A stretch of DNA of 64,000 bases from positions 91,819 to 155,818 of the forward strand of contig CAYQUS010000001.1 of NCBI GenBank assembly GCA_964421015.1. The letters run 5' to 3'. Of the stretch, positions 36,865 to 63,304 are shown piece by piece. How positions within the stretch are numbered: position 1 is the first letter of the stretch; every line of letters starts with the position of its first letter. This DNA comes from an uncultured Planctomycetia bacterium. GTDB lineage: Bacteria > Omnitrophota > Gorgyraeia > Tantalellales > Tantalellaceae. The position numbers and the translations under genes are program-made. The notes below the pieces were generated by a model that saw nothing but the letters and a program-made list of their open reading frames with translations, was not told the origin of the DNA and ran no database searches.

Positions 36865-38769
36865 TTACTCACGGGGCTTCGCCTCTCCCCGCAGCCTGGC
36901 TATCTCACCTCTCAAAAGACGGCAGTAGAGATCGAACCCTACCTGATCTATGAATCCGCTTTGCTCTACCCCAAGGATGTTCCCCGCCCCTCTCATTTCA
37001 AGGTCATGCATCGCTATCTTGAAACCCGACCCCAGCTTCTGGTATTTGACTATCGCGTCCAACCTGGACTGAACTTCCCCGGGAAGAGAAGAAAGGTCCC
37101 TGACCGTAAGATACGCGTAAGCCTCTCTGTCGAAACGGCCTATGCGTCCTCTCAGCTGATATAGCTCGGCCAAACCGAATCTGTCAGCGTCGTCTATTAT
37201 CATTGTGTTTGCGTTAGGGATATCTATGCCTGATTCAATTATTGTCGTACATACCAGGATATCGGCCTCGCCTCTTATGAACTTTATCATGGTCCTCTCA
37301 AGCGTCCTGGAGCTCATCTGGCCGTGGGCTATCATGATCCTGGCTTTCGGGGAAAGTTTCGCCACTCTGGAGGCGACTTTATCTATGCTTTCCACCCTGT
37401 TGTGCACGTAATACACCTGACCCTTTCTGTCAAGTTCAAGCCGTATGGCATCCCGTACAATACCGTCCTCGTACTGAATGACCTTTGTACTTACGGGCAG
37501 GCGTTCGAGAGGGGGCGTCTCTATTACCGACATATCTTTCCCTCCCATAAGGGCAAGATAGAGCGTCCTCGGAATAGGGGTCGCCGTCATGCTGAGAACG
37601 TCTACGCTGACCCTCATTTTTTTTATCTTCTCTTTGTGCCTGACCCCGAACCTTTGTTCTTCGTCCACAATAAGAAGACCAAGATCCTTAAAGACCACGT
37701 CTTTAGATAAAAGCCTGTGTGTGCCTATGACAATATCCACTTCTCCGGATTCGAGGGATGCGAGGATAGCTTTCTGCTCAGCGGCCGTCCTGAACCTGTT
37801 GAGCATCTGTATATTAAGCGGAAAATCCTTTAGGCGCCTTGTAAAAGTGTCCGTATGCTGTTCCGCAAGTATTGTTGTCGGGACAAGAAACGCCACCTGT
37901 TTATTGTCCATCACGGCTTTAAAGGCCGCCCGAAGCGCTACCTCTGTCTTTCCGTACCCCACATCCCCGCAGAGAAGCCTGTCCATGGGTCTTTCGGACT
38001 CCATATCTTTCTTAACATCTGCTGTGGCCTTAAGCTGATCTTTGGTCTCTTTATGCGGGAAAGCTTCCTCGACGTCTTTTTGCCAGTCCGTATCCGGGCT
38101 GAAAGCGAAGGCCCTTGAACTTTCACGCTGGGCGGCCATTTCCAGAAGATCTTCGGCTATTTTATGGGCGGCCTTAGCGGCCTTCTTTTTGTCGGCCTCC
38201 CACTTTGTGCCCTTCAGGCTGCTTAGACCGGGAAGCTTCCTGTGGAAAGAAACATACCTCTGTATCTTGTTAAGATCTTTCCTCTCCACATAAAGCCGGT
38301 CCCCGCCTTCATATTCCAGGACAAGGTAATCTTTAAGGACACCTCCTCGCCTCATTCTCTGGAGCCCCACGTACCTGCCTATTCCGTGATCAATATGAAC
38401 TACCGTATCCCCGGGCTCGATATCCACAAAAGAATCTATCGGCATGTCCTCTCCGCTGAGAACAGCGCGCTTAAGACCTGAGCGCCTGAGAACAGTGAGA
38501 GGCAATATGACAACACCATTATGCTCGTCTATGGTCCTGAGAGAATCGAGTTCAACGCTTTTTATGGAAAGAATGACGCCTTCTGAAATATCCAGCCTGA
38601 CGGGATACTCGAAAGTGACCGGAAAAACCACCAGGGTCTCTCCCACGAGGGAGTAATCCCCCTCGCAAGAAACCTTTTTTACGCGAGTGTACCCATGCTC
38701 CTCAAGAAAGGAACCTATGCCTTCTATATCGCACGGCTCACCCGAGAAGAGCTTGATAGATTCCACCAT
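36865..38769 (-). CDS. mfd: Transcription-repair coupling factor Mfd, short form (634 aa) lacking N-terminal UvrA-binding module and C-terminal D7
   Basis: RNAP-interacting CarD/TRCF domain (IEPGDTVVHIDHGIGRYVGL), SF2 motifs (CGDVGYGKTEVA, DEEQRFG), TRG motif (LRGRIGRFDREAYAYL); no ORF upstream between it and argS. Confidence 0.8.
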   Translation of the reverse strand: MVESIKLFSGEPCDIEGIGSFLEEHGYTRVKKVSCEGDYSLVGETLVVFPVTFEYPVRLDISEGVILSIKSVELDSLRTIDEHNGVVILPLTVLRRSGLKRAVLSGEDMPIDSFVDIEPGDTVVHIDHGIGRYVGLQRMRRGGVLKDYLVLEYEGGDRLYVERKDLNKIQRYVSFHRKLPGLSSLKGTKWEADKKKAAKAAHKIAEDLLEMAAQRESSRAFAFSPDTDWQKDVEEAFPHKETKDQLKATADVKKDMESERPMDRLLCGDVGYGKTEVALRAAFKAVMDNKQVAFLVPTTILAEQHTDTFTRRLKDFPLNIQMLNRFRTAAEQKAILASLESGEVDIVIGTHRLLSKDVVFKDLGLLIVDEEQRFGVRHKEKIKKMRVSVDVLSMTATPIPRTLYLALMGGKDMSVIETPPLERLPVSTKVIQYEDGIVRDAIRLELDRKGQVYYVHNRVESIDKVASRVAKLSPKARIMIAHGQMSSRTLERTMIKFIRGEADILVCTTIIESGIDIPNANTMIIDDADRFGLAELYQLRGRIGRFDREAYAYLTVRDLSSLPGEVQSRLDAIVKYQKLGSGFKIAMHDLEMRGAGNILGVEQSGFIDQVGFDLYCRLLRGEIARLRGEAKPRE

Positions 38770-45862: not shown

Positions 45863-46058
45863 GTTTTCTCCCTTATTGATGCTTTTAAACTGACGCTCCC
45901 GCTAAAAAGCATGCGGCAGCTGGATCAACTTTAAAATAACCCCTGAACCAGAAGGCTAAATCTATGCCTCCGGCTTACATGGGCCCAAAAACTACACAAT
46001 ACTATCAAACGGATGTGGTGTTGTCAAGAGCATTTAAGCTATTTAGAGGGAATAAACT

Positions 46059-47294
46059 CTACTTGGTCCAGTTCACTATGGCCAGCCCTTCGTCCGGACT
46101 GGCTTCGTCGTCATCGTAAAAATCGAAATCCAGACTCAGGTCCGAAGGATAAGTAAGCACATATTCATAAACAACGTTAGTTTGAACATCCCAAAATGAC
46201 ATTTCCCCTGTCTCCGCCAGTACTATCCCGTTTATGTTCACCTGCACCCCGGATGACCTTGTCCTGATACCGGTCTTAGCGTAAACAAGAGCCTCGTCCA
46301 CGTTTAGCCCCCCGAATATACCTATTTCGGAGTTTTTGGCCAAAATAAAATTCCTCGTGGGCGATATCCCTCCCGCGTGGGCAGTCTGATTCAGCGTTCC
46401 CTGTATGTCTATTTCATCGGCCACTATCCCGCCGTTAAGGGTTGTGGTCCCCTTTATGGTCGCTTTACCGTCGACATAGACCACGCCCTTACCGGGCGTC
46501 AGGGTAGCATTATTGAAGGTAGTGTTTCCGCTATAGTAATTCCCTGACGCTATTGCCTGCTGTTTGTACACCAGATAGTCAAACACGGGGAAAGCTATTC
46601 TTCTGGCTCCTTCCGACACACTGCCCCCGTCACTACCAATACCGTTTATGTATACCTCGGCATCATTTTCATCGGCCGCATCATGCTGGGCCCCTTCCCT
46701 CACTATCCCCACAGCCGCGACTGTTCCGGAGAGGTCCTGTGGCTCTTCAGCCTCCGCGTCATATTCGAGCCCTTCTATCCATACAAGCCCGTTATTGAGA
46801 GACCTTAGCTCAACGTCTCCGTTAGCGTGTATATCGCCAACGACCGTTATACTGGAATCGGCCCTTGTTGCCCTGGCCTTTATGCCGGCTCCTCCCGCGA
46901 ACATTTTAGTAAGGACCGGAGGTATTGATCCCTTTATCTCGGCTGAGACCGATTTTGAAACTCCCGTGCCCGTAACTGTACCTACGGAAGTAACAAGTAT
47001 CCTGGACCCGACCTTATTGTAGGTGACAGAATAAGTGCCCGTATCCATAGTCCCTGAAAAGTCCTCTCTGGAGCCTATCCCCTGAGCCTTCAGCATGACA
47101 AATGCGTGGTATATGCCTGCCTCCGCTAGATTTTTAGCCTGTTCACCTGTCTTACAGCGCCCCACAAGCTCGATATCGCTTTTTATCATGGACGAAAAAG
47201 AAACTATGGACATGGACATAAGCAGCACAAAGCCCATCACCATGAGCATCACAAAACCTTTCTCGTTCTTTTCGATACCGAACCCTCTTATCAT
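46059..47294 (-). CDS. PilX_N-like minor pilin / pilus-associated secreted protein (411 aa)
   Basis: N-terminus EKNEKGFVMLMVMGFVLLMSMSIVSFSS..IELV resembles PilX N-terminal domain; rest Gly/Thr/Asn-rich predicted beta structure; sits in pilus gene cluster. Confidence 0.55.
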   Translation of the reverse strand: MIRGFGIEKNEKGFVMLMVMGFVLLMSMSIVSFSSMIKSDIELVGRCKTGEQAKNLAEAGIYHAFVMLKAQGIGSREDFSGTMDTGTYSVTYNKVGSRILVTSVGTVTGTGVSKSVSAEIKGSIPPVLTKMFAGGAGIKARATRADSSITVVGDIHANGDVELRSLNNGLVWIEGLEYDAEAEEPQDLSGTVAAVGIVREGAQHDAADENDAEVYINGIGSDGGSVSEGARRIAFPVFDYLVYKQQAIASGNYYSGNTTFNNATLTPGKGVVYVDGKATIKGTTTLNGGIVADEIDIQGTLNQTAHAGGISPTRNFILAKNSEIGIFGGLNVDEALVYAKTGIRTRSSGVQVNINGIVLAETGEMSFWDVQTNVVYEYVLTYPSDLSLDFDFYDDDEASPDEGLAIVNWTK

Positions 47295-47345
47295 GTTAAT
47301 CCTCGTTTAGATATACTCCGCTTAAAAACCCATGGAACTCCGGTA

Positions 47346-49919
47346 TCAGCTTCCGGTATTTTTAGTCTCTATCCCGAACACCTTTTCTTCCGCAAAAACC
47401 CTTCCATTATGCTCCATTTCCACCGAAACCACTATCCCATATCCCCAGGAAAGAGGTTTCCCGTCAAACTCGACATACACTTTTCCATAATCGTTCTTCT
47501 TGGCTATATCCGCCCTCAGCACGCATACCCTGCCCTCGCCGGCCCAGTTTATCTCAACATCGTCTATCCACAGTTCATCGACCGCGGAAACCAGGTATTC
47601 CCCTCCGTTGGAGGGAAAAACGTAGGGATCTGCCGAAACCTGCTCCGTAACGTAATCCTCATAGGTCGAAGTCCCTCCGGAATATTCCCAGTATGGCTGC
47701 GTCACCATTTCCGCGAGATACTGAACATACCTTACGGAGTCTATGGAAAGCTCGAACGGGCTCGTGGAAGACCCCGAGACATCCGCCCAGTCCGGCGCTC
47801 CGGTCATGGCGAAATTTCCCGAAGAGCGTGCCTTGAGCACTATCGGGGCAGCCGACAAATTCTCCTCGCTCCACGTCAAGCTGTCATAACTCGGGGCAAA
47901 AACCTCGGTATCGAATATGCGAGACTCCACGGTTCCCTTTTTCCTCCACGAATCCATCTCCACCACGATGTAAATGTCGTCGTTTGCCGCGGGTTCCAAT
48001 TTGGCGAACGCAACACCTACGCCCACAGAGGTAAAATCCACGGCAACCCCGCCGTCCTCAGGAGTGATCTGAAAATGATCGGCGGTACTGTTAGCGACCA
48101 CGTATACGTCGGATCGCGCCGACGCGAGGTCGCTCCATGAAGGCGTACCGGCTATCTGGGACAGCCCGGTCTCAAGCGAAAAAACTTCCAGATTTCCGGG
48201 AGTCCCGCCCACATCTATACCCGGCGAAGACGTAGCGGTAAAAACCACCATATCCCCGTCCTCAAGTCCGTGCCCGGCCGAATCTATCCTGTCATCTTCT
48301 ATGTTGACTATCCCGGATGAAAAAACAGGGCTTATGACGTAGGTGTTATCCCCTGTGCCGTTAAAATACCTGCAGTCCGCGGCATCCGGGTCGAAATCCA
48401 CCCCAAATTCGGCCTCAAGATCAGGCACTTTTATGGTCAGTAGATATTCCGCGTCATTGCCCGAGGCGTCATCCACCGCTAACGGGAAAGCTGTCCACTC
48501 GCTCCACGCGAAAGAGCCGGCTGCTACCCATGCCTCGGCAAGGATCTCTTCACTGTCACTGTTTTCGTTCCCGTCCGTAAGGTCCTTAAAAAAAAGCTGC
48601 TGATGCGTGTGATACTCATAGGGCTCGTCGTCCGCTCCCGGAGCGGTATTCCCCTGCCCGTCGTAATCCGCCGCGCCGACGGATGTATCTTTCCGTGTTA
48701 TGTACGCGCTGTCTATCTTAAGAGGGTTAACACTGGAAGACATTATCTTCACGCGTACCATGTCGGCCCTGACCGGTTCCGTAGCCCCTGTACCCGAAGG
48801 ATCAATTTTGGAGTTAGAAATATTGTTCCTAAATACGGCGGGATACGCCGGAAGCGTCCCGTCCGCGGGCGGGTACTGGGCGTCGGCTCCGGATTCGTCA
48901 AATGCCTCCCAAACGACATCGTCGGCGTTCTCATCAAGCCGTGATTCTTCGGATGGCGTTACCATTTTAGCCCTTACCTCTTCCCCGTAAAGAGAGACAT
49001 TGCTGAAACTCGCGCTGTCGAAAGCGGAATTTCTCCAGAGGTCGTATCCATCGGTGAACTCTATGTAGTCGCCCTCCTCTGCCGCTGAATACTCCACGTA
49101 GTTGTGATTGCTGAACACCGTGTCGTAGATCCTCGTGACGTCGCCTCCGGAGGAGTCCCACATCCCTTCGGGGGCAAGTTCGGATATGTAGTACTCAGCC
49201 TCTCTGTAACTGTTGGCCGGATCTATTCTCACATTGTCTATCCCGAATGAAAAACCTCCCGAATCGTCATTTTTCCCGGATACCACAAAACTAACGGTAT
49301 GTTCTCCCGGAGTCACGTTAACTGTACCGAATATCACATCCGACTCCCTCACCGCGGACTCGGAATCGGTATAAAAATCGACTTCCCTGGCCAGGGGGCC
49401 GATAGTAAAGGTCTTGAGATAGGAATCTATTACAACCTCTCTGGAATCCCAATCAAGTTCACCGGATATCAGCGAGGCCAGAAGCTGCTGTCTTCCATCC
49501 TCATCAAGATCATCATCCCACGAGTTTACCACCGTTCTTACGAGGTTAAACCCCTCCCCGTCAGATTCCGCGTGATAGAACACTGTCTTGTCCCAGATTA
49601 TCTTCCGGTTAGCGTCAACCGTAAAAAAACCGTTCTCGTCAAGAGTGGCCTGGGGCATCATTACGGCGGTATACAAAAAAGCGTCTTCAGGATAAAAACT
49701 CATAAAGTCCCCGCTGGAAAGGCGAAGATCGCTTTTTATCTTTTCTACCGACGATAAAAGTTCGATCCTCATCCTGGTCCTTTCCCTCTCCCCGGACCAG
49801 GTCCTGTGAGTGAATATCCATGCCGATGTCACTGACGCCACAAGAAAAGCCGTCACTACGCCGACGAACATAACTTCCGTCAATGTGAACCCTTTTTGTC
49901 CTGAAAAAAACTTTTTCAT
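47346..49919 (-). CDS. Giant prepilin-type protein (857 aa) with N-terminal class III (type IV pilin) signal
   Basis: MKKFFSGQKG|FTLTEVMFVGVVTAFLVA: prepilin-peptidase site G|FTLTE with Glu at +5 and hydrophobic alpha1; long acidic Asp/Ser/Glu/Trp-rich C-terminal region. Confidence 0.6.
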   Translation of the reverse strand: MKKFFSGQKGFTLTEVMFVGVVTAFLVASVTSAWIFTHRTWSGERERTRMRIELLSSVEKIKSDLRLSSGDFMSFYPEDAFLYTAVMMPQATLDENGFFTVDANRKIIWDKTVFYHAESDGEGFNLVRTVVNSWDDDLDEDGRQQLLASLISGELDWDSREVVIDSYLKTFTIGPLAREVDFYTDSESAVRESDVIFGTVNVTPGEHTVSFVVSGKNDDSGGFSFGIDNVRIDPANSYREAEYYISELAPEGMWDSSGGDVTRIYDTVFSNHNYVEYSAAEEGDYIEFTDGYDLWRNSAFDSASFSNVSLYGEEVRAKMVTPSEESRLDENADDVVWEAFDESGADAQYPPADGTLPAYPAVFRNNISNSKIDPSGTGATEPVRADMVRVKIMSSSVNPLKIDSAYITRKDTSVGAADYDGQGNTAPGADDEPYEYHTHQQLFFKDLTDGNENSDSEEILAEAWVAAGSFAWSEWTAFPLAVDDASGNDAEYLLTIKVPDLEAEFGVDFDPDAADCRYFNGTGDNTYVISPVFSSGIVNIEDDRIDSAGHGLEDGDMVVFTATSSPGIDVGGTPGNLEVFSLETGLSQIAGTPSWSDLASARSDVYVVANSTADHFQITPEDGGVAVDFTSVGVGVAFAKLEPAANDDIYIVVEMDSWRKKGTVESRIFDTEVFAPSYDSLTWSEENLSAAPIVLKARSSGNFAMTGAPDWADVSGSSTSPFELSIDSVRYVQYLAEMVTQPYWEYSGGTSTYEDYVTEQVSADPYVFPSNGGEYLVSAVDELWIDDVEINWAGEGRVCVLRADIAKKNDYGKVYVEFDGKPLSWGYGIVVSVEMEHNGRVFAEEKVFGIETKNTGS

Positions 49920-49934
49920 ATAAGCCCCGGCGTA

Positions 49935-50351
49935 TTATTCCGTAGAAATATCAGCTATCAGAGTTTCCATTACAACCGGGCCTCCCGCCTTAACTCCGGA
50001 GGAAGCCCTGTAGACCGTGACCTTAACGTGCAATAGGTTAGCATAGCCGTCATAGTCCTCTTCTACCTCGGTAGTCCTGAAATAGTCCGTTACACCGTCT
50101 CCGTCATTGTCGACCTCTATATCCGTTTCGGGAGCCTCCTCAGGGATATCTCCGAAAACCATATTACGCAAGTCTTCCACCCGCTTAAGAGCCACAAGAG
50201 ACGTATTGTATATACCATCGGCTCCCACTCCAAGAACAGCACTTTGGGAAACAGCCGACAGGACGGCAAGGGTAACTATTGTGACAATTACCATGCCGGC
50301 TATGACCTCGACCAGAGTTATGCCTTTTTCATTCGTAGAAAAAGAAAACAA
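49935..50351 (-). CDS. Pseudopilin / minor pilin (prepilin-type N-terminal domain)
   Basis: NEKG|ITLVEVIAGMVIVTIVTLAVL prepilin motif; start proposed at TTG seven nt after a GGAGG RBS, giving a 9-aa leader (upstream in-frame ORF extension judged spurious). Confidence 0.5.
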   Translation of the reverse strand: MFSFSTNEKGITLVEVIAGMVIVTIVTLAVLSAVSQSAVLGVGADGIYNTSLVALKRVEDLRNMVFGDIPEEAPETDIEVDNDGDGVTDYFRTTEVEEDYDGYANLLHVKVTVYRASSGVKAGGPVVMETLIADISTE

Positions 50352-50557
50352 CACTACACCTCCGCGTTTTAAACCCCTAATATAAGTATACATTATATCC
50401 AGGCCGAAAACTATCATAGTCAGAGAAATAACGCGCAAGTAGCCTGAAAACCGACTTTTGACGAAAGTACACGCTTCTATGGCCATGAACCCGCTAAATT
50501 TGAATGCAAGAGAAGTGTTAATCCTAGAACTCTCTCCCGGGCATAACCGGGAAGAGC

Positions 50558-52105
50558 TCATTTCTCATCGATGATAACATCCTCTATGTGAAGAGATTTA
50601 TCGGATACGAGGTCGATCCGGCACCGATGTTTTTTCTGTATGTCTCCCAGCATCGCGGCCTGATCGGAAATAAGGGCGTCATGTATATCTGGATGCAGTA
50701 GAACGTTCACATGTTTTAGCTTTTTCGGGGATAAAGCGAACTTCTGGTCTATTCTTCGAACAGCCTCTATAGCTATGGTTTCCACGCTCTTTATCATGCC
50801 CTTCCCGGAACAATAGGGACACTCTACTCGTGAGGCGCTCTCAAGGCTCTTTCTCATCCTTTGGCGTGTCATCTCCACTACGCCGAACTGGCTTATTCCT
50901 CTGACGCTTATCCTGGCTTTATCGCGTTTCAGGGCATTTTCCAGCGTATGAGATATCTTGTCACGGTGTTCCTTTATCTCCATGTCTATGAAATCTATTA
51001 TGACTATGCCTCCGATGTCCCTCAGCATAAGCTGCTTTGGTATCTCCTCGGCGGCTTCCATGTTCGTACGAAAAGCTGTCTGCTCAAGCCCTTTTTTGCC
51101 GACAAAACTGCCTGTATTTACGTCTATTACTACCACTCCCTCGGTCTGTTCGATTATCAGGTAACCGCCGCTTTTAAGAGGCACCTTGCGCTCGAATATC
51201 CCGTCGATCTGTCTGTCCAGATCATATTTCTGGAAAAGAGGTGTTTTACCGTTGTAAAGTTTCACGTTATTACGTAAAGACGGCATGTAGGATTTAAGAA
51301 AACGCATGATACGGATATATTCTTCCCTGGAATCAACGAGAAACCTGCTGACGTCCTTTGAAAAAACATCTCTTATCATTCGCAGAACAAGTCCGTATTC
51401 CTCATAAACCGTAACCGGCGCTTTTTGCCGTGTTGACCTTTCTTTGATCGTCTTCCAAAGATTGACCAGGTACTTGTATTCGCTAAGCAGTTCCTCCTCC
51501 GAGCGCCCCTCGGCAACCGTTCTGACGATACATCCCGTTTCCTCCACGCCTCCTATCTTGGAGATTATGTCCCTTATGCGTTTTCGCTCATTCTTGTCGG
51601 TGATCCTGCGGGAAATGCCAAGACCTTTGTCATATGGGGTTAGAACAAGGTACCTGCCCGGAAGGCTGACAAATGTCGTAAGCCGCGGGCCTTTCGTACC
51701 CATTGCCTCCTTTACTACCTGGACCATCAGCTCTTCACCTATCTTCAGTATTTCCTTTATTTTTGGAAGCCCTCCATGCCGCACCTTTTTGACCTTGGGC
51801 TCGTCCTCGTCCGACAAAAGCTCCTTGAGAACAGAGTCCTTGTCTATAACGTCGCTCACGTGCAAGAATCCGTTCTTTTCCATGCCGATATCCACAAAAG
51901 CGGCGTCTATACCCTGCAGTATAGCGCTGACCCTACCTTTGTATATGCTGCCGGCGTAATGAACTTTGCTTTTCCTTTCCATGAAAAAATCCACAAGCTC
52001 TCCATTCTCAAGAACGGCCACCCGGGTCTCGATGGGGCTTGTGTCCACGAGCATTTCTTTCAGAACATGCTGCGCTTTTTTATCTTTCTGATGATGCTTT
52101 ATCAT
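50558..52105 (-). CDS. rng: Ribonuclease G / RNase E-family endoribonuclease
   Basis: S1 domain (AGSIYKGRVSAILQGIDAAFVDIG) then RNase E/G catalytic core; 515 aa without a scaffold region. Confidence 0.85.
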   Translation of the reverse strand: MIKHHQKDKKAQHVLKEMLVDTSPIETRVAVLENGELVDFFMERKSKVHYAGSIYKGRVSAILQGIDAAFVDIGMEKNGFLHVSDVIDKDSVLKELLSDEDEPKVKKVRHGGLPKIKEILKIGEELMVQVVKEAMGTKGPRLTTFVSLPGRYLVLTPYDKGLGISRRITDKNERKRIRDIISKIGGVEETGCIVRTVAEGRSEEELLSEYKYLVNLWKTIKERSTRQKAPVTVYEEYGLVLRMIRDVFSKDVSRFLVDSREEYIRIMRFLKSYMPSLRNNVKLYNGKTPLFQKYDLDRQIDGIFERKVPLKSGGYLIIEQTEGVVVIDVNTGSFVGKKGLEQTAFRTNMEAAEEIPKQLMLRDIGGIVIIDFIDMEIKEHRDKISHTLENALKRDKARISVRGISQFGVVEMTRQRMRKSLESASRVECPYCSGKGMIKSVETIAIEAVRRIDQKFALSPKKLKHVNVLLHPDIHDALISDQAAMLGDIQKKHRCRIDLVSDKSLHIEDVIIDEK

Positions 52106-52116
52106 GCTTTCTCCTT

Positions 52117-52416
52117 CTATTTCGTTATATCCAGTATCCTAACCCCGTCGGGCAGGCACCGGTTAATAGAGTCCGTTACCTCGGCTTCCGGCACATCGCG
52201 TGTCAACCATAGGGACAATTCCTCTTTCTCGCTCTCCACCCCCAGCTTAAGAGCCTTGGGCATACTTATCTTCACCCTGGGGGAAAACCCGCCTGTCAGA
52301 AAAAAAGGCAGACCGGCCCTTCTTATAGCCCTCCTGAAAAGGGTCATAAGGTCAAGGTGGGAAATATACACCATGTCCCCCTTTTTGCAGAAAACAGCGT
52401 TATATCTTGTAAGCAC
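52117..52416 (-). CDS. DUF2344/TIGR03936-like protein, short (99 aa, N-terminal half only)
   Basis: MVYISHLDLMTLFRRAIRRAGLPFFLTGGFSPRVKISMPKALKLGVESE matches conserved N-terminus of radical-SAM-linked DUF2344 proteins that are commonly adjacent to rng. Confidence 0.55.
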   Translation of the reverse strand: MLTRYNAVFCKKGDMVYISHLDLMTLFRRAIRRAGLPFFLTGGFSPRVKISMPKALKLGVESEKEELSLWLTRDVPEAEVTDSINRCLPDGVRILDITK

Positions 52417-52496: not shown

Positions 52497-54287
52497 CTAC
52501 TTTTTGTCCCTGAAATCCCAGAAAGACCTTTTCTTTTTCTCCTCGGCCGGAGCCTTGGAAACCGAGCCCACTATCTCCGTCTTTTCCTTTATACTGAGCT
52601 CTCCTTTCTTAACAAAAGGAAGAGAAGCCCCCGGCCCGTCCTTCATCTTGTCGCCGAACTTGTCACGTCCTTCCTTCTTGACATAAGCGTCGTAAGCGCC
52701 CTGAGACTGGGAGAATTCAACCGAATCTTTCCCGTCCCTCACTATGTGTACTGTCACAAAGAACACTATCTCTGTCCTGGTAATATCCTCAGCCTCGTAT
52801 TTAAAAATATGTCCTATGCCGGGTACATTGCCGAAAATGTCCCCCAATACCGGAACTTTATTATCCGTAGTCGTGGCATTCTTGCGTATAAGTCCCCCAA
52901 GAAAAATAGTTTCTCCGTCCTTTACCCTGACTATTGTGTTAGCCTCCCTGGAACTGTACGTAAGAGCTACGCTGCTGTCGGCTCCTCCTACCGGGATGAC
53001 GCTGAACTCAAGGTCTGAAGAAACCTCCGGAAGAAGATTTACGGATATCTCTCCTTCCTCGTTGACATGGGGGATAACAGCCAGTTTCACTCCTACTTCC
53101 CTGGCGTCACTTTCGCTTTCGAACTCGACAGTGACAAGAGTCGCGGTCTGCGTTGTCTCGACCGATTTCTGCAGCATTATCTTGTCTATGACCTTTATCG
53201 TGGCTTTCTGGTTATTGAGCGTAGTAATTCTTGGGCTCGATAGTATTTCCGTATCCCCTCTGTCGTTCAAAAGCTGCAAAGTAGCCGAGAATGTCGAGAA
53301 ATCAAGAGTTCCGAAACTGTACACGGAGTTGGCGGTCTGGGCCCCTGTCGGGCTCTGGAATATTGTGGCGTTCATCCGGGGGAACCTCTGGTTCTGATCA
53401 CTGCCCTCGGCCCCGTACTGGGGATAAAAATCCCGCTGGGTATCTCCCGGCATAAAAGGTAAAAGCCCGTCAGCGGTGAACGGGAAAGTTATTGGCCTTC
53501 TCGCGCCCGACGCTGTTATCACGGTGTTCCAGTCTATCCCGAACCTCTCATCCTTATCCAGAGTTATTTCCACGACCTTGGCGTCCAAAACTATCTGCGG
53601 AGGCTTCTGGTCTACCCCGGCGATCACCTTCTTTATCTCGCTCATTTTCGAAGGAATAGCCGTCACCACGAGGGAATTCACGCTGGGTATAAAGGTTACG
53701 CCCTCTCCTCTTTTCGTGTCCAAGAGATCGCCTATAGCCTTCATTAGCTGGGCAACGCTTATTTCCGTCTGGGAAACGCCAACCTCATCGCTTGAGTCGC
53801 TGGAACTCTTGGTAAGTTCAGTTTCCCTGGTGAGGTGACTCAGCTTTATGACCTCGGTAACTGTCTCCTCGGCAGCCAACTGCCCCCTGGGCATAACGCG
53901 TATTATGTGGTCTTCCCTGGAATAAACGTAACCGTAGTTTCTCGTAACTATGTCCAGAGCCGTTTCCCAAGGTTTGTCCCTAAGTCTCATGGTAACCTTC
54001 CCGGAAACCCCCGGAGCGGGAATTATATCAACCCCGCTAACTTCCGAAAGGTAGTGCAGGACGGTATTTATCTCGACATCCTTAAAATCCACGGTTATGC
54101 TCCCGGGAGAGGGCAGGACCACGGGCTTGGCCGGCTGAGAAACCGGCTGAGAAACCTGCGCCTGCGCTCCGGCAGTCTCACTGACCTGCGCAAAGGCATG
54201 AGTTCCGTCAAAAAGCGAAAAAACTAAAAAAAACGCCGTCAGGACACGAATTATCCCCTTCGATCCTATTTTAAACGCTCCGGACAT
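52497..54287 (-). CDS. pilQ: Type IV pilus secretin PilQ
   Basis: Signal peptide; N-domains; C-terminal secretin domain (VPVLGDIFGNVPGIGHIF..TEIVFFVT). Confidence 0.85.
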   Translation of the reverse strand: MSGAFKIGSKGIIRVLTAFFLVFSLFDGTHAFAQVSETAGAQAQVSQPVSQPAKPVVLPSPGSITVDFKDVEINTVLHYLSEVSGVDIIPAPGVSGKVTMRLRDKPWETALDIVTRNYGYVYSREDHIIRVMPRGQLAAEETVTEVIKLSHLTRETELTKSSSDSSDEVGVSQTEISVAQLMKAIGDLLDTKRGEGVTFIPSVNSLVVTAIPSKMSEIKKVIAGVDQKPPQIVLDAKVVEITLDKDERFGIDWNTVITASGARRPITFPFTADGLLPFMPGDTQRDFYPQYGAEGSDQNQRFPRMNATIFQSPTGAQTANSVYSFGTLDFSTFSATLQLLNDRGDTEILSSPRITTLNNQKATIKVIDKIMLQKSVETTQTATLVTVEFESESDAREVGVKLAVIPHVNEEGEISVNLLPEVSSDLEFSVIPVGGADSSVALTYSSREANTIVRVKDGETIFLGGLIRKNATTTDNKVPVLGDIFGNVPGIGHIFKYEAEDITRTEIVFFVTVHIVRDGKDSVEFSQSQGAYDAYVKKEGRDKFGDKMKDGPGASLPFVKKGELSIKEKTEIVGSVSKAPAEEKKKRSFWDFRDKK

Positions 54288-54311
54288 GATCCCTCCTCAT
54301 ATATCATTGAT

Positions 54312-54695
54312 TCACTGCTGAACCTTGTGTTCATACAGCAATATCTCATGAACAGCCCCGTCAATGGATATCACGGCTTTGTTGTCCCCTACCTCAACAA
54401 GTTCAACAAGCCCCACCGTCTGGCCTTCCTCTAAAATTTCCCCGTTGAGCACTATAGCCTTCTTTCCCTCAGACCCCGTTGCTATACCCTGAAACTTGGC
54501 GTCCACTATCGTGAATATTCCGGCTATACCGCTTCTGGATTTTACCGTGTCGACCCCGACAAGGGGAACAAAGGGGTCTCTCCTTAAACTCTTCTCCGGC
54601 TCCGTTTCATCTTCGCCGTAGAAAACTCCGGCATAAAAAAACACCCCTAGAAAAAGCATAACCGCCAGGATCTTTGAAAAAGCGTTATTTGGCAT
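54312..54695 (-). CDS. pilP: PilP-like pilus assembly protein
   Basis: Small protein with N-terminal TM/signal (AFSKILAVMLFLGVFFYAG) and beta-rich C-terminus, located between pilO and pilQ; start trimmed to MPNN. Confidence 0.5.
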   Translation of the reverse strand: MPNNAFSKILAVMLFLGVFFYAGVFYGEDETEPEKSLRRDPFVPLVGVDTVKSRSGIAGIFTIVDAKFQGIATGSEGKKAIVLNGEILEEGQTVGLVELVEVGDNKAVISIDGAVHEILLYEHKVQQ

Positions 54696-55296
54696 CTTTT
54701 CCGCCTTTTTGCGAAATGTATATCTTAAGAACAATGTGCGCGTCATGCCGTGTAGGAGATTTGGGATCGTACTGCAACCTTATGTCACGTACAGAGGGAA
54801 AACCCTTGCCTTTTTCCAGCTCGCCTATAAAATGCCTCATCTGGTGATATCCGCCCTTGGCCGATATGACCACCATCATACTCGGGTAAAGATCAGCCGA
54901 CTTGTCAACTGCCGCCTGGACCCCCATCGGGGTAACGCTTATTATCCTTACGTTCGAGTCCTTGGCCACGACTGCCAGAGAATCCAGAAAGGCGGCTATT
55001 TCCTTGGTTCCAGGCACCTGGCTCGCGTAAGAGGAAAACTCTTCCCTGAGGGATTCCAGTTTTTTTTCAAGCTTGCCCGTGTTTTCCAGATCTTTCCTTG
55101 CCATATCGATTTTCTTGGAAATTTTAAGAGAATTCTTCGATACGTTTCCCAGATTCTTTACCGTCGGCACCACAAGAAAAAAACCGTAGAGAGCCGCGAA
55201 AACCGCCGCCGCTGAAACAGCCGCATAAGCCCTTTTCTTCTCATCCTGAAGAAAATCCCTTATCTCATCTGCAATTTTCTCTAATTTCGGGTCCAT
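54685..55296 (-). CDS. pilO: PilO-like pilus assembly protein
   Basis: Single TM (AVSAAAVFAALYGFFLVV) followed by coiled coil and PilO-type periplasmic domain; position after pilN; start trimmed to MDPK. Confidence 0.6.
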   Translation of the reverse strand: MDPKLEKIADEIRDFLQDEKKRAYAAVSAAAVFAALYGFFLVVPTVKNLGNVSKNSLKISKKIDMARKDLENTGKLEKKLESLREEFSSYASQVPGTKEIAAFLDSLAVVAKDSNVRIISVTPMGVQAAVDKSADLYPSMMVVISAKGGYHQMRHFIGELEKGKGFPSVRDIRLQYDPKSPTRHDAHIVLKIYISQKGGKDAK

Positions 55297-55313
55297 CCGC
55301 GATTTCCCGCTCC

Positions 55314-55982
55314 TTACTTTCTTCTTTTTCTTTTCGAACCCGCTTTTTTGGCGGACTCTGCCCTTCTCGGAAATTCGCATTTCAGACGAAAAAGCATTGT
55401 CGCTTCGTCATCAACGGCTTTGGAACTCATGTCTATAAGCTCTATCTCTCTGAAATACCCCGAGAAATCCTTGTTCGCCTTAAGCGAGTTTATGAACCTG
55501 GCCACGCCGGACGTAGCCACCTCGCTGTTCCCCAGAAAATGTCCGGTGAGGACCAGCCTGGTGGGATACTGTTCCGTGTCTTTATAGTTGAAGGTTTTTC
55601 CCGAAGACTCAAGCGCGAGCCTCGACAGCCATACTCCAGGGATAACCGCCTCATCAAGCCCGCCGAGAAGACGGTACCATTTTACCTCGGTACCCGATAT
55701 CTTTTTGACGAACTTTATGGCCTTTTCCATTTCGGCTATTTCGGATGACAGAGCGTCATATTTTTCTTTCAGTGGTTTAATATCCTCCCATTCGCCCTCG
55801 AGCCGTCCGGCATGGTTTCCCTTAAGAAGCACCGCCACCCCCAAAAACGCGTGAACAATAAGAACAAGAGCCGAAATCCCGATAGCTATCGGGATAAGCG
55901 GAAGCACTATGGGGCCGGAGCTTTTCGCCCGTTTTTTTACCCTGAACTCTTTAGGCAGAAGGTTTATTTCTATCATTTTCAT
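55314..55982 (-). CDS. pilN: PilN pilus assembly protein
   Basis: MKMIEINLLPKE conserved PilN N-terminus, TM, coiled coil. Confidence 0.7.
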   Translation of the reverse strand: MKMIEINLLPKEFRVKKRAKSSGPIVLPLIPIAIGISALVLIVHAFLGVAVLLKGNHAGRLEGEWEDIKPLKEKYDALSSEIAEMEKAIKFVKKISGTEVKWYRLLGGLDEAVIPGVWLSRLALESSGKTFNYKDTEQYPTRLVLTGHFLGNSEVATSGVARFINSLKANKDFSGYFREIELIDMSSKAVDDEATMLFRLKCEFPRRAESAKKAGSKRKRRK

Positions 55983-55996
55983 GGTTTCAAGCTCGG

Positions 55997-57016
55997 CTAT
56001 CCTCTTTTGGCCAGACCTACGCTTACCGCGAGCCGCGAAGAGACAAGATCAACGTCCTTTCTCGATAAAACATCAGAAGTTTTCATCCCGAAAAGGGGGT
56101 CCCACTTTTCCACGCTGGTTCCCATTTTTTCCGAGAGGAACTCAATAACTCCTCCCGCGTACACCAGACCTCCCGAACAGAAAATACCTTCTATTGACCT
56201 GTTGCATGTCCCCTCAAAATACCCGAAAGAAAGCTGAACCTCTCTGACTATATCGTTAAGGACCTTACGGACGCAATTCTCCACCGTCTCTTTGTCGAAC
56301 TCGCCTATACCTCGCTTATACTCGTCCGCCTGGGCATGAGACACAGAGAGGTTCCTGGCTATCAGAGAGTCTATATCCCCTCCTCCGATCTGTATCTGCC
56401 TCATAAAATAAGGGGCTTCGTCCACTGATATAAGCAGCGACGTAACGGAATGCCCCATGTCCACAAGAGCGAAAACGTTTTTGTTAGACGCCGCTTTGGA
56501 GGTAACAAAGGCGTTGAATAACGCGAAGGCGTTCACATCTATGAAATTTATTCTTATGCCCATATCCATCAAAAGCTTGACCCTTTCTTCCACGAAAGCT
56601 CTTTTCGCGGCCGTGAGAAGAACTTTCATCTGCCCCTGCTCGGGCGCGTCTCCCAGAATAACGCTGTCAAGGATAACTTCCTTGACACTGAAAGGGATAT
56701 ATTTTTCAGCCTCGAAAACAAGAGCCGCCTCAAGCTGCTCTTTTGTCATTTTAGGCAGAGTTATGAACCTGACTATTACCTCAGGTCCGCCGACGGAAAG
56801 ATTGACGTTACGGGGACGTATGTCTATCTCTGCGAGAGCCGCCTTAAGTTCGGCGGCAAGATCGGGTTTTTCAGCGTTCTTGGAGAAATCCCTGACATTG
56901 TAAGCTTCCAGCAGGGGCTCTTCAGTAGAGCCGCTTAGAACGGCCACTTTTATTGAATGCGAGCCTATGTCTATCCCGACGGTCGCGTCGTCCCTGCCGG
57001 ACCCCAGCTTTGCCAT
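55997..57016 (-). CDS. pilM: Type IV pilus assembly ATPase-like protein PilM (actin fold)
   Basis: VGIDIGSHSIKVAVL..; 339 aa actin/FtsA-like; pilMNOPQ order. Confidence 0.85.
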   Translation of the reverse strand: MAKLGSGRDDATVGIDIGSHSIKVAVLSGSTEEPLLEAYNVRDFSKNAEKPDLAAELKAALAEIDIRPRNVNLSVGGPEVIVRFITLPKMTKEQLEAALVFEAEKYIPFSVKEVILDSVILGDAPEQGQMKVLLTAAKRAFVEERVKLLMDMGIRINFIDVNAFALFNAFVTSKAASNKNVFALVDMGHSVTSLLISVDEAPYFMRQIQIGGGDIDSLIARNLSVSHAQADEYKRGIGEFDKETVENCVRKVLNDIVREVQLSFGYFEGTCNRSIEGIFCSGGLVYAGGVIEFLSEKMGTSVEKWDPLFGMKTSDVLSRKDVDLVSSRLAVSVGLAKRG

Positions 57017-57200: not shown

Positions 57201-57611
57201 TTATCCAGCAGGTACTTCCTCTTCCTCTTCTTCCTCTTCCTCAGCAGCGGTAGTCGGCAAAGTGTGCTCAGGGTAATCAGCAACCCTGGGACATGCTGGC
57301 GGATCCGCAACTGTCGCCACCGTATAGCCTGTCTGGTCAGTATCCAGCGGGCAATAAGGCGTGGTCTTTATGTAATCACCCACAAGATCAGCCATAGTTA
57401 CCGCGTCCGTACTACCCATTCCCTCATCAAGAGCCCAGAGAGTTATGGCGCCGTCTATCTGCTTCAGGTTGGCTATACACGCGTTCTTCTGAGCGGTTTC
57501 ACGGGCCCGCATAAAGTTCGGTATCGCTATCGCGGCTAAAAGACCTATAATTGCGACCACTATCATTATTTCAACCAGCGTGAACCCACCCTTTTTAGTC
57601 AGCATCTTCAT
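57201..57611 (-). CDS. Type IV pilin (PilA-like) with C-terminal poly-Glu tail
   Basis: MKMLTKKGG|FTLVEIMIVVAIIGLLAAIAIPNF classic type IVa pilin N-terminus (start taken at ATG 7 nt after AGGAGGT); two Cys pairs; C-terminal E10. Confidence 0.8.
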   Translation of the reverse strand: MKMLTKKGGFTLVEIMIVVAIIGLLAAIAIPNFMRARETAQKNACIANLKQIDGAITLWALDEGMGSTDAVTMADLVGDYIKTTPYCPLDTDQTGYTVATVADPPACPRVADYPEHTLPTTAAEEEEEEEEEVPAG

Positions 57612-57671
57612 ACATATCACCTCCTTTCAAAGAACAAAATTGAAGGCCAAAGCCCTCTTTTCTTCTAACTA

Positions 57672-57700
57672 AAGTATACCTGTACAAAAGGGGCAATGCA
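57672..57700 (-). promoter_or_regulatory. Candidate sigma70 promoter of the poly-Glu pilin gene (TTGCAT-N17-TATACT)
   Basis: Minus strand TTGCATtgccccttttgtacaggTATACT about 55 nt upstream of pilin start. Confidence 0.3.
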
Positions 57701-57712
57701 AATTTATAGGGG

Positions 57713-58105
57713 TTATTCCTGTTCGGGGTTCGGTTGGGTATTGTCGGGAGGTAATACGTGTCCCGGGTATTCGCTGGCTTTCGGACAAACAGGCGAAGCT
57801 GATACAACGGTGACTACGTATCCTTCTTTTTCGCTGTCCAAGGGGCAATATGGCGTCGTTTTTATATAGTCGCCCACAAGATCTTCCATCGTAACCGCGT
57901 CGTCGCTCCCTTTTCCCCCGTCGAGAGCCCACAAAGAGATAGCCTCGTCTATCTCTTTAAGATTAGCCACGCAGGATTTTCTCTGTGCAGTTTCACGAAC
58001 CCTCATATAGCCAGGTATGGCTATAACCGCCAGAAGGCTTATTATCGCTATCACGATCATTATCTCAACCAGAGTAAATCCCGGTGATGTTTTTTTTATA
58101 TCCAT
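57713..58105 (-). CDS. Type IV pilin (PilA-like), paralog of the downstream pilin
   Basis: MDIKKTSPG|FTLVEIMIVIAIISLLAVIAIPGY; shares ANLKxID.AI.LWALD..GDYIKTTPYCPLD core with the neighbouring pilin. Confidence 0.8.
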   Translation of the reverse strand: MDIKKTSPGFTLVEIMIVIAIISLLAVIAIPGYMRVRETAQRKSCVANLKEIDEAISLWALDGGKGSDDAVTMEDLVGDYIKTTPYCPLDSEKEGYVVTVVSASPVCPKASEYPGHVLPPDNTQPNPEQE

Positions 58106-58156: not shown

Positions 58157-59377
58157 CTAGAAATTAATTATCTCTGAGATCTTGAAAATTGGCAGGAACA
58201 TGCATATCACTATGCCGCCTATCACTATCCCGAGAAAAGCTATGATAAGCGGTTCAAGAAGGCTTGTAAGAGAATCTACCATAACATCCACCTGTTCGTC
58301 GAAAAAGTCGGCTATCTTAGTAAGCATCTTTTCGAGCTCTCCCGTCTTTTCACCCACAGATATCATCCTGGTCACAAGGGGCGGGAAAATACCGCTTCGC
58401 TCCATGGGTTCGGATATGCTTTCCCCTTCTTTGACGTTGTCTCTGACCTTTGTTATCGTGTTTTCTACCACGACGTTTCCGGCCGTCTTCGAGACTATCT
58501 CAAGAGCCTGAAGTATTGGCACGCCGCTTTTAACCAGAGTGCTGAGAGTCCTTGAAAATTTGCTTATGGCCACTTTTTTCTGCAACGGCCCGAAAACCGG
58601 AAGCTTAAGCTTCAGCTCGTCAAGCTTCCATTTGCCTTTTTCCGTGGAGATGTACCATTTTACGACCGAAGAAAATATAATTACAAACACCACGAATACC
58701 GCGAAATACTTCCGGGCGTAATCGCTGAGATCTATCAGGAACTGTGTGGGCCCCGGAAGAGCCGCCCCGAACCCTGAAAATATGTCCTTAAAAACCGGTA
58801 TGACCTTCAGTATCATGAGCGCCGATATCCCCACCGCCATTCCGGTGACGGCCGTAGGATACACCATTGCGGACTTTATCTTCCTTTGCAGATTATTGGT
58901 CTTTTCAAGGTATGTCGCCACCCTTTCAAGAACATCATCAAGCATACCTCCTGACTCTCCCGCCTTTACCATGTTTATGAAAAAATCGGAAAATATGGCC
59001 CTGTGCTTTTCCATGGCCTCGGAAAGGCTGGAACCTGTATTAACACTGTCCCTGGCGTCAATTATCGCTTTTTTGAAAGCCGGGCTCTGGGCCTGTTCGG
59101 AAAGCGTGTCTAGCGATGTAACTATCGTTATACCCGCGGCGGTCAGGGTCGCCATCTGCCGCGTAAAGATCACAAGCTCATCGAGAGAGACCTTCTCCTT
59201 GCCCCCTAACTTGAATGAGGAAAGAGAAAACGAACTCTGCTTCGCCTCCTCGAGCTTCAGAACGAGAAGGTCCCTGTTCCTCAGCATGTCAAGAGCTCTG
59301 GACCTTTCCGGAGCCTCTATCTCACCTTTAATGCTTTTCCCCGTCCTGTCCTTTGCCGAGTAATTGAATTTTCCCAT
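58157..59377 (-). CDS. pilC: Type IV pilus platform protein PilC (GspF family)
   Basis: 406 aa, two T2SSF repeats, three TM segments. Confidence 0.9.
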   Translation of the reverse strand: MGKFNYSAKDRTGKSIKGEIEAPERSRALDMLRNRDLLVLKLEEAKQSSFSLSSFKLGGKEKVSLDELVIFTRQMATLTAAGITIVTSLDTLSEQAQSPAFKKAIIDARDSVNTGSSLSEAMEKHRAIFSDFFINMVKAGESGGMLDDVLERVATYLEKTNNLQRKIKSAMVYPTAVTGMAVGISALMILKVIPVFKDIFSGFGAALPGPTQFLIDLSDYARKYFAVFVVFVIIFSSVVKWYISTEKGKWKLDELKLKLPVFGPLQKKVAISKFSRTLSTLVKSGVPILQALEIVSKTAGNVVVENTITKVRDNVKEGESISEPMERSGIFPPLVTRMISVGEKTGELEKMLTKIADFFDEQVDVMVDSLTSLLEPLIIAFLGIVIGGIVICMFLPIFKISEIINF

Positions 59378-59396
59378 ACCTGCCCTCTCCGTTGAA

Positions 59397-61103: not shown

Positions 61104-61107
61104 AACA

Positions 61108-62838: not shown

Positions 62839-62854
62839 TTCTATCCTTTTTGCA

Positions 62855-63304
62855 TTACCTCTTTTTATAAAGTTTGTTAAGCGCTCCGGATATACCAGTG
62901 ACCGTGCCTATAAAAACCTGCACCTTTTTCTTTGTAAGTGTCTCCACGTCCTCTATGGCCTTGTCGTTGAGCGGATTGGACATGGCTATGGTAAGGATAT
63001 CTCCCATCACGTCTATGGGCACCACTCCGTACTGCCTTGCCATATTCTCGGGTATGACTTTTGTCATCTCCTGGTTGAGCTCATAATTCTCCACGGGAAT
63101 GTAGGGAAACCCGTACTGGGTCGTAAGCGCCTGAACTATATCTATCTCTCCCACAAAACCCAGTTTTATGAGTATTTCACCTATGAGCCCGCCTTCACCC
63201 TTCTGGAACTCAAGGGCCTTCTGAAGCTGCTGCTCAGATATAAGTCCGGAGGATTTAAGTATCTCTCCGAGTTTTTTTCTTTTTTCGTTTTCCGGTAAAA
63301 CCAC
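62855..63304 (-). CDS. Standalone MshEN/GspE-N-terminal-like domain protein, putative c-di-GMP receptor
   Basis: 149 aa; two tandem 24-residue motifs KLGEILKSSGLISEQQLQKALEFQ and LIGEILIKLGFVGEIDIVQALTTQ matching the RLGxxLLxxGLIxxxxLxxxLxxQ c-di-GMP-binding pattern of MshEN domains. Confidence 0.65.
   Translation of the reverse strand: MVLPENEKRKKLGEILKSSGLISEQQLQKALEFQKGEGGLIGEILIKLGFVGEIDIVQALTTQYGFPYIPVENYELNQEMTKVIPENMARQYGVVPIDVMGDILTIAMSNPLNDKAIEDVETLTKKKVQVFIGTVTGISGALNKLYKKR

Follow-up and report, generated by a model that had tools for sequence, protein, structure and literature searches.

A giant pilin in a conserved three-gene locus: a probable tip complex of the Omnitrophota type IVa pilus

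In the established model of how type IV filaments are initiated, an I-J pair recognizes a folded K subunit, and the resulting trimer templates polymerization and remains at the tip (PMC13533445); initiation by GspIJK is also discussed in PMC6561018 and PMC8179133. ComZ of Thermus is a GspK-like pilin with an inserted β-solenoid that binds the adjacent GspI-like PilA2 and for which a tip location has been argued (PMC6561018). All cyanobacterial PilX proteins have the same solenoid architecture and have been put forward as tip plugs in place of PilY1 (bioRxiv 10.64898/2026.02.12.705559). A survey of modular pilins (Raynaud et al. 2021), which includes S. sanguinis PilB (vWA) and PilC (lectin) as well as CofB, found lectin-like and carbohydrate-binding modules to be common and noted an 860-residue Falkowbacteria pilin as the largest (PMC8179133). 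Nearly all Omnitrophota have type IVa pili, and a role in attaching to hosts has been proposed for them (PMC10066038). Here we describe a trio of minor-pilin genes, the middle one of which encodes an 857-amino-acid (aa) prepilin, in a stretch of 64,000 nucleotides (hereafter the window) from an uncultured Planctomycetia bacterium that GTDB places in Omnitrophota (GCA_964421015.1, contig CAYQUS010000001.1, positions 91,819 to 155,818 of the forward strand).

The trio lies directly downstream of rng, the RNase G/E gene, in an Omnitrophota type IVa pilus-like gene cluster, and the genes of the region are all on the minus strand. Its members are as follows.

49935 to 50354 (start GTG 50354 or TTG 50351), minus strand: small minor pilin of 138 aa, 14.7 kDa, isoelectric point (pI) 4.1, resembling the GspI/PilV/ComGE class
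47346 to 49919, minus strand: giant prepilin of 857 aa, 94.2 kDa, pI 4.13, the middle, J-position gene of the trio
46059 to 47294, minus strand: K-class minor pilin-like protein of 411 aa, with a PilX_N-type N-terminus, a pilin fold, and an inserted β-solenoid

A first-pass annotation of this DNA had described three consecutive genes downstream of rng, each with a prepilin-like N-terminus. The three genes and the N-termini of the first two hold; the third protein does not carry a canonical class III signal. With moderate confidence, we read the trio as the complex that primes the Omnitrophota type IVa pilus and sits at its tip, and the giant protein as the likely tip adhesin or ligand-recognition scaffold.

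Judged by its sequence, the 857-aa protein is a real pilin. Its N-terminus, MKKFFSGQKG|FTLTEVMFVGVVTAFLVASV, comprises a 10-residue basic leader, a predicted cleavage site at G10|F11, and Glu15 at position +5. In a 29-sequence homolog alignment that extends to the final residue of the protein, E15 (+5) and T12 (+2) are invariant and G10 (−1) is at least 90% conserved. Scored alone, the window sequence falls below the cut-offs of PF07963 N_methyl (E = 0.024, 14.7 bits against 21.2) and TIGR02532 (12.5 bits against 16.3). We regard this shortfall as marginal because N_methyl is detected at E ≤ 0.5 in 27 of the 29 giant-pilin homologs, with a best E-value of 1.5e-5. An AlphaFold2 model made with the homolog alignment as input (pLDDT 83, pTM 0.69) has a 54-residue α1 helix (residues 13–66) followed by strands at 74–76, 85–90, 111–119, and 124–131, and the remainder is nearly all beta.

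The protein belongs to a large family. Searching 1.84 billion cluster representatives in full with HMMER retrieved 266 of them at E ≤ 1e-30 and 416 at E ≤ 1e-10. The full-length representatives (n = 151) span 601 to 1010 aa with a median of about 711, and a strict G-x-[TSA]-x-x-E motif lies within the first 60 residues in 116 of them; those without it are mostly near variants or truncated gene calls. Thirty-one close homologs have 547 to 857 aa. One is an identical protein that was deposited independently (P0001), and the 30 non-identical ones (547–840 aa, 35–57% identity) all come from Candidatus Omnitrophota. The size that the first-pass annotation had singled out as exceptional is therefore real, but it sits at the upper end of the family, with only 8 of the 151 representatives reaching at least 850 aa. 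The textbook class III signal that it had recognized is confirmed by the invariant Glu+5 and Thr+2, the near-invariant Gly−1, and the modeled helix at 13–66.

Two ways of explaining the protein away had been raised with that annotation, namely that the prepilin-like start is no more than an ordinary Sec signal or transmembrane anchor and that a sequencing or assembly error joined two genes into one open reading frame (ORF). In their favor are the below-threshold N_methyl score of the window sequence and an extra insert at about residues 541–640 that is modeled with low confidence. Both fail on the homologs. Glu+5, which a Sec signal does not require, is invariant, and it is accompanied by the motif in 116 of 151 representatives and by the 54-residue α1 helix. 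Full-length homologs of 35–57% identity align end to end, as do the 151 representatives from the N-terminal motif through the conserved tail; the insert is kept in frame in three homologs (P0002, P0003, and P0008) and at four loci; and the independent deposit has the same sequence. We rejected the fusion and Sec-signal readings on these homolog alignments, and the probability left to them is negligible. Nor is the ORF due to chance, because 266 representatives exist and about 30 genomes show the same order of the three genes.

That order was examined in a pattern-based scan of one genome per GTDB species, which returned 32 loci. All are labeled Omnitrophota (including Ca. Omnitrophus magneticus, Ca. 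Tantalella remota, and Ca. Makaraimicrobium thalassicum) or "uncultured Planctomycetia"; a pattern-based scan such as this is no proof that the family is confined to Omnitrophota. Nearly all loci that are long enough, from about 30 Omnitrophota genomes, keep the order pilMNOP-secretin-DUF2344-rng-small-giant-solenoid-rplU-rpmA-obg-proB. In the window and in these loci, the giant gene lies between the I-like and the PilX_N/ComZ-like genes, which is the J position. The whole trio also occurs in tandem, with two copies in L008 (7508–15310) and L022 (7151–15745) and three in L002 (9586–20716), and stand-alone trios are found far from the pilus machinery in L036 and L037. The solenoid gene alone is duplicated in L001, L015, and L033. 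Because the three genes travel and duplicate together, their products are most simply explained as subunits of one complex, and the tandem and orphan trios suggest alternative tips for one machine.

Beyond its pilin helix, the giant protein has about 790 residues of predicted beta domains and an acidic, aromatic-rich composition (150 Asp + Glu against 58 Lys + Arg, 19 Trp, and 37 Tyr). We divided it into zones using an alignment of 57 diverse representatives. Residues 1–300 are fully occupied, 300–500 mostly occupied, about 497–640 variable, and 641–857 conserved. The following features were assigned.

49722 to 49919, minus strand: residues 1–66, with the leader, cleavage site, Glu15, and long α1 helix (from the alignment and the AlphaFold2 model)
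49215 to 49340, minus strand: residues 194–235, a carbohydrate-binding module (CBM)-like segment resembling the last strands of the xanthan-lyase CBM
48000 to 48431, minus strand: residues ~497–640, an insertion hot spot with an occupancy of 0.17–0.6, against ~1.0 on either side
47349 to 47999, minus strand: residues 641–857, a conserved all-beta C-terminal region with an occupancy of 0.9–1.0 except in the loop 741–780

The CBM-like segment follows the pattern G-x-H-T-x-x-F-x-x-x-GKN-x-x-S-x-GY-x-x-G-x-D, and its G198 and D228 are invariant in the 57 representatives. A profile of residues 1–240 searched against the PDB matched 7ehg (MiXBM, a xanthan-binding module) at E = 9.5e-6 and, weakly, residues 858–899 of the xanthan lyase 6f2p (E = 0.07). 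Corresponding searches with residues 235–460 and 640–857 returned nothing. In Pfam, neither the giant protein nor its close homologs had a significant match beyond the N-terminal motif; recognizable modules were carried only by distant relatives. When the whole model was searched with Foldseek, local matches of about 200 columns and high probability were obtained to a carbohydrate esterase, ConA-type lectins, and phage structural proteins. These are consistent with jelly-roll β-sandwiches but are not specific.

The hot spot is where relatives carry different modules. The insert of the window lineage, about 100 residues long (about 541–640), is found in a minority of relatives and has no Pfam match even at E ≤ 10. 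In a 1010-aa relative (P0073), the extra residues map after window residues 528–565 and contain a LamG domain (Laminin_G_3, a ConA-like lectin). Five relatives of 940–984 aa (P0186, P0199, P0204, P0206, and P0210) carry FG-GAP repeats, and each has an insertion of 110–119 residues after window residue 497. The giant family thus seems built to display swappable binding modules.

Within the conserved C-terminal region, S666, D670, and T671 are invariant in the 57 representatives. The extreme C-terminus of the family is near-invariant, with the consensus P-R-N-T-G-K (TKNTGS in the window; 47349–47366, minus strand), and in 106 of the 151 representatives a terminal N[TS]G is followed by no more than two residues. 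AlphaFold2 models this tail as a coil past the last strand. It may serve in docking, in the manner of the C-terminal strand in PilY1 or CpaL.

An acidic loop of the DxDxDG type, DLDEDG, is present at residues 137–142 (49494–49511, minus strand), and many homologs have D-x-D-x-D-G-x-x-D after a conserved HQQLFF motif near residue 450. Because DxDxDG motifs are not conserved family-wide, a calcium switch like that of PilY1 is only possible, and we make no claim of a calcium site.

The sugar-binding proteins of the archaeal bindosome use a class III signal only for membrane anchoring and sorting. The giant protein could likewise be an envelope binding protein and no filament subunit, its class III signal serving for anchoring or sorting. 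The CBM-like segment, the great size relative to ordinary pilins, and a body without a pilin-class-specific sequence signature would all suit such a protein. We nevertheless give this only a slim chance. The gene lies strictly between I-class and K-class genes and is duplicated with them; helices need Glu+5 to pack in filaments, and this residue is invariant; and an inner-membrane anchor would strand the domains in the periplasm, since the organism has a secretin. Large tip pilin-like proteins also have precedents in ComZ, CpaL, CofB, and S. sanguinis PilB (PMC6561018, PMC13533445, PMC8179133).

The two proteins encoded on either side of the giant gene resemble the outer members of an I-J-K trio. 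The 138-aa protein begins with the leader M/V-LFSFSTNEKG, of 10–11 residues ending in Gly, and cleavage is expected before ITLVEV. The longest ORF of its gene (208 aa, from 50561) extends too far upstream, and a Shine-Dalgarno sequence (GGAGG, 50363–50359) stands 5–8 nt upstream of GTG 50354 and TTG 50351. The start and the N-terminus NEKG|ITLVEV given in the first-pass annotation are accordingly correct, and the latter scores above the Pfam N_methyl cut-off (E = 4.7e-5). TIGR01707 (gspI) aligns over 97 of its 101 positions with E = 1.1e-5, at 25.9 bits against a cut-off of 44.35. Among 31 orthologs, matches at E ≤ 0.01 were found to ComGE in 23, PilV in 22, and GspI in 21, all below the curated cut-offs. 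On sequence criteria, the protein resembles the GspI/PilV/ComGE (I) class, yet it is not a member by curated thresholds.

In the 411-aa protein, a conserved Gly13 is followed by hydrophobic residues that lack a Glu at +5, an arrangement shared with GspK, PilX, and ComZ. Its family shares an AEAG motif and a conserved C-terminus ending in IVSWN. As the first-pass annotation had proposed, it is a PilX_N-like protein with beta repeats: PilX_N is detected in 10 of 36 homologs and Bactofilin-like repeats in 11 of 36. The AlphaFold2 model (pLDDT 84) ends in a strand at residues 404–410 that follows an acidic linker. Its top Foldseek match is ComZ of Thermus thermophilus (6qvi; E = 1.8e-8, probability 1.0), followed by ice-binding solenoids. 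With about 14% identity and TM-scores of 0.25–0.33, the match to ComZ indicates the same architecture and not close kinship. In the PDB, sequence profiles of the small pilin and of the solenoid protein found only matches to the N-terminal helix or to a chance tail-fiber segment.

The match to ComZ, a DNA-binding tip pilin (PMC6561018), raises the question of whether the solenoid protein, and perhaps also the giant, captures DNA for uptake through a competence pilus in these reduced-genome bacteria. ComZ and PilA2 have been proposed as the DNA receptor in Thermus (PMC6561018). In the same direction, ComGE is the commonest model match of the small pilin family and the major pilins score on ComGC. 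We consider a receptor for DNA unlikely. The three proteins are strongly acidic (pI 4.1, 4.1, and 4.6), which is unfavorable for DNA binding, and cyanobacterial motility pili also use β-solenoid PilX proteins (bioRxiv 10.64898/2026.02.12.705559). In addition, the modules swapped into relatives, LamG and FG-GAP, are typical of glycan or protein adhesion.

In the tip-complex reading that we favor, the small (I-class), giant (J-position), and solenoid (K-class) proteins would enter the inner membrane via their N-terminal helices, and a prepilin peptidase encoded elsewhere would cleave the small and giant pilins. The three α1 helices would then bundle and license the PilB/PilC/PilMNOP machine to polymerize small major pilins beneath them, and the complex would thereby reach the distal tip and exit the cell via the secretin. 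A PilY1 strand would not be needed, because the solenoid protein would supply the last β-strand in cis. The giant subunit would take the role of the PilY1/PilC adhesin as a tip-exposed, module-swapping recognition protein, whose likeliest ligands would be glycans or surface proteins of hosts, prey, or particles. Omnitrophota are mostly ultra-small and possibly host-dependent. A recognition role of the giant subunit fits the pilus-mediated host attachment proposed for them (PMC10066038). The suggestion of the first-pass annotation that this is a large modular pilin with a binding module at the tip agrees with the I/J/K-like gene order, the CBM-like segment, and the LamG and FG-GAP swaps, with adhesion and the tip location being what we infer from them.

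Several observations weigh against a J-like tip adhesin, and some of them concern the class of the giant subunit. By Foldseek, its pilin part matches a 198-residue chain of an XcpGHIJK pseudopilus model (PDB 9a1f chain S) with a probability of 0.97 and a target-normalized TM-score of 0.47, the subunit identity of that chain not being established; gene order and this one fold match are the support for the J-class label. An NCBIfam scan of 25 N-terminal segments, in which TIGR01711, PRK08808, and NF041002 were considered as J-class models, gave no specific GspJ, PilW, or ComGF match: PRK08808 was hit once and ComGF three times, and helix-driven matches to ComGE, ComGD, and GspH were commoner. 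Comparison of the N-terminal 240 residues with single E. coli K-12 GspH, GspI, GspJ, and GspK sequences by hhalign did not discriminate between classes, GspJ aligning over 21 helix columns only and GspH over more columns than GspJ. The giant subunit is for this reason called "J-position" here and not "a GspJ." An H-class minor pilin was not recognized among the three proteins.

Other points on the same side concern the body and the export of the protein. The similarity to CBMs spans just 42 residues, the body outside that segment has no sequence match in Pfam or the PDB, and the whole-model Foldseek matches are weak. A hypervariable, ligand-binding patch was sought in tandem paralogs, which instead diverge evenly and show no clear one (30–66% per 50-residue block). 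A subunit of 94 kDa would need to traverse the secretin, and no A24 motif (GGGDxKL type) of a prepilin peptidase was found by motif search of the window.

A more specific version of the tip-complex reading is possible, and we advance it only tentatively. PilY1 would have been replaced by an adhesin of 70–110 kDa built onto the Glu+5-bearing middle tip subunit. Its conserved N- and C-terminal domains may form a rigid scaffold, and the hot spot at about 497–640 may take interchangeable recognition modules such as the window's own insert, LamG, or FG-GAP. Tandem and orphan trios may then give one machine several tips with different host or glycan specificities, and the P-R-N-T-G-K tail may dock into a partner subunit and license assembly, by analogy with the PilY1/CpaL strand.

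The machinery encoded upstream of the trio is type IVa pilus-like, with PilM, PilO, a secretin, two PilB-like ATPases, and a PilT-like ATPase, of which a fragment is present near the end of the window.

50558 to 52105, minus strand: RNase G/E gene, rng (Pfam RNase_E_G, E = 5.9e-103)
52497 to 57016, minus strand: pilM, a pilN-like gene, pilO, a 144-aa gene in the PilP position, and a PilQ-type secretin gene (PilM_2, E = 1.1e-45; PilO, E = 5.9e-9; Secretin, E = 2.6e-38, plus STN and Secretin_N)
57201 to 58105, minus strand: two small GspG/ComGC-like prepilins of 130 and 139 aa, the candidate major subunits (N_methyl, E = 7.1e-8)
58157 to 63958, minus strand: T2SSF platform protein (E = 1.6e-68), two tandem PilB/GspE-type ATPases with MshEN (T2SSE, E = 1.5e-138 and 1.4e-130), a lone MshEN protein (MshEN, E = 1.4e-17), and a PilT-like fragment (T2SSE, E = 6e-29)

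A six-frame motif scan of the window found canonical class III signals in four long ORFs, those of the two small prepilins, the 138-aa pilin, and the 857-aa protein. The small prepilins score above the cut-off of TIGR02532 and below those of the GspG, ComGC, and PilA models. The two are paralogs; the 139-aa one (57201–57620, minus strand) ends in nine consecutive Glu (…AAEEEEEEEEEVPAG), and the tail of the 130-aa one (57713–58105, minus strand) is rich in Pro, Asn, and Glu. No PilY1-like protein was seen among the large ORFs scanned in the rest of the window, which are housekeeping genes, or in the gene tables read for related loci.

Some of these matches would also suit a type II secretion-like pseudopilus, in which the trio would cap a short periplasmic piston and the giant would bind or push substrates such as glycoside hydrolases or giant proteins. 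Several family members are named "type II secretion system protein" in their sources. The small pilins score best on GspG/ComGC, the small minor pilin on GspI, and the PilO-position protein on GspM, with every GspG, GspI, and GspM match below its curated cut-off. The nearest structural relatives of ComZ and other Thermus minor pilins are the pseudopilins of type II secretion (PMC6561018), and giant-protein loci in Omnitrophota are flanked by secretion and pilus genes (bioRxiv 10.64898/2026.06.07.730766). Against a pseudopilus, PilM_2 and PilO are typical of type IVa pili, GspC and GspL went undetected in Pfam scans of the window, and the PilT-like retraction ATPase lies at the end of the cluster. 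Such Omnitrophota clusters have moreover been classed as type IVa pili, which V. archaeovorus is reported to express (PMC10066038). A secretion piston is in our judgment improbable, and we retain the reading of the trio as the tip complex of a type IVa pilus.

Other features of the surroundings were noted. The lone MshEN protein (149 aa, 62855–63304, minus strand) is encoded directly upstream of the tandem ATPases (61108–62838 and 59397–61103, minus strand), both of which also bear an MshEN domain. MshEN domains are receptors for cyclic di-GMP. Because they occur in the cluster, pilus assembly may be under cyclic di-GMP control. The longest ORFs of the PilN-position, PilO, and PilP-position genes (54312–55982, minus strand) overlap by 60–70 nt (55314–55380 and 54685–54746), suggesting that translation of the downstream genes really begins past the first in-frame start codon.

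A DUF2344 protein of 99 aa (52117–52416, minus strand) matches only positions 1–95 of the 176 in its model. Most of the ~30 Omnitrophota loci have this short form, placed after the secretin gene and before rng; its position being kept, housekeeping genes are embedded in the pilus cluster. On the 3′ side of the trio, the window continues with rplU, rpmA, obg, proB, and proA. The 196-nt gap between the stop of the solenoid gene and rplU holds one further feature.

45999 to 46027, minus strand: promoter-like site, TTGACA-17-TAGTAT with an upstream TG (a match to the sigma-70-like consensus only, 10 of 12 positions)

No comparable site was found in the gap of about 200 nt between rng and the small pilin gene. 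As a consensus match, the site would mark the trio as a unit apart from the ribosomal-protein operon. Farther along, a 634-aa Mfd/TRCF-like protein (36865–38769, minus strand) has UvrB-interaction, CarD/RID, DEAD, and Helicase_C domains and is roughly half the usual length of Mfd. GC skew is below zero in all 2-kb blocks of the 64-kb window and the identified genes are all on the minus strand, which places the window within one replichore with co-oriented genes.

Among the structures that could attach these uncultured nanobacteria to hosts or prey, Omnitrophota type IVa pili are the foremost candidate (PMC10066038). The occupant of their tip has not previously been described, and the locus offers a concrete, phylum-wide candidate. 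Should the giant subunit be a tip adhesin, its swappable modules would provide a handle on host or substrate specificity, modular pilins would be extended to a conserved scaffold with an internal insertion site, and a third way to cap a pilus without PilY1 would stand beside the GspK-type and solenoid-PilX-type tips. Domain-signature surveys also undercount modular pilins.

Size alone is not unprecedented, since modular and large tip pilins (ComZ, CpaL, CofB, and HpsA-type PilX) are already known. What appears to be new is a large family without domain signatures that domain-based surveys would miss, in which the enlarged subunit is the Glu+5-bearing middle one and not the K-class one. The conserved scaffold with an internal insertion hot spot appears new as well, as does the fixed phylum-wide locus wedged between housekeeping genes. 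We found no description of the giant-pilin family in the literature searched.

The giant protein consists of a pilin module plus extra structural modules, which is the definition of a modular pilin. Like the proteins surveyed by Raynaud et al., it would display those modules on a filament, and its size is comparable to theirs. The survey would have missed most members of the family because it required an InterPro domain beside the pilin motif, and the family has none. Unlike the surveyed pilins, the giant is a conserved multi-domain scaffold with an internal hot spot, not a single C-terminal graft, and its family occupies a fixed locus conserved across the phylum.

With PilY1/PilC and with CpaL/TadG of Tad pili, the giant family shares a length of 600–1200 aa, a tip association (predicted here), and variable modules on a conserved carrier. 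PilY1 has a β-propeller (IPR008707; PMC8179133), and some giant relatives have FG-GAP repeats, which typically form propellers. The extreme C-terminus is conserved in PilY1 and CpaL as well, and their C-terminal strands are functionally essential (PMC13533445). PilY1 differs in having no class III signal and in not being a pilin, whereas the giant has a canonical signal and Glu+5; the PilY1/PilC family was absent from the Pfam matches of the giant protein and its homologs. CpaL occupies a K-like position, whereas a separate K-class protein is present here.

The trio itself is closest to GspI-J-K and PilV-W-X (PilI/J/K). Its genes are adjacent in the order small I-class, middle, and K-class, which is the order of gspI-J-K, pilV-W-X, and pilA2-pilA3-comZ. 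The first two proteins have Gly−1 and Glu+5 and the K-class member lacks Glu+5, and the expected role, priming assembly and capping the filament, would be the same. As in GspK (PMC13533445), the last β-strand of the K-class protein is predicted to be provided in cis. The middle subunit, in contrast, has 857 aa (family median about 711) against 195 aa in E. coli GspJ, and the bulky extra domain of the K-class protein is a β-solenoid, whereas that of GspK is an α-domain. The trio also differs in having no H-class gene, and no PilY1 is present.

The Thermus ComZ-PilA2(-PilA3) system and cyanobacterial PilX resemble the trio in a further respect, since the 411-aa protein combines a pilin fold with a triangular β-solenoid resembling ice-binding proteins. 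As with ComZ and PilA2, its gene is found in the company of a GspI-like small pilin, and there is no PilY1. The solenoid is shorter than that of ComZ (411 aa for the whole protein against more than 500), and a role as DNA receptor cannot be carried over to the trio because all three of its proteins are acidic. Thermus and cyanobacteria have a bulky K-class subunit, whereas in the Omnitrophota trio it is the J-position subunit that is by far the larger.

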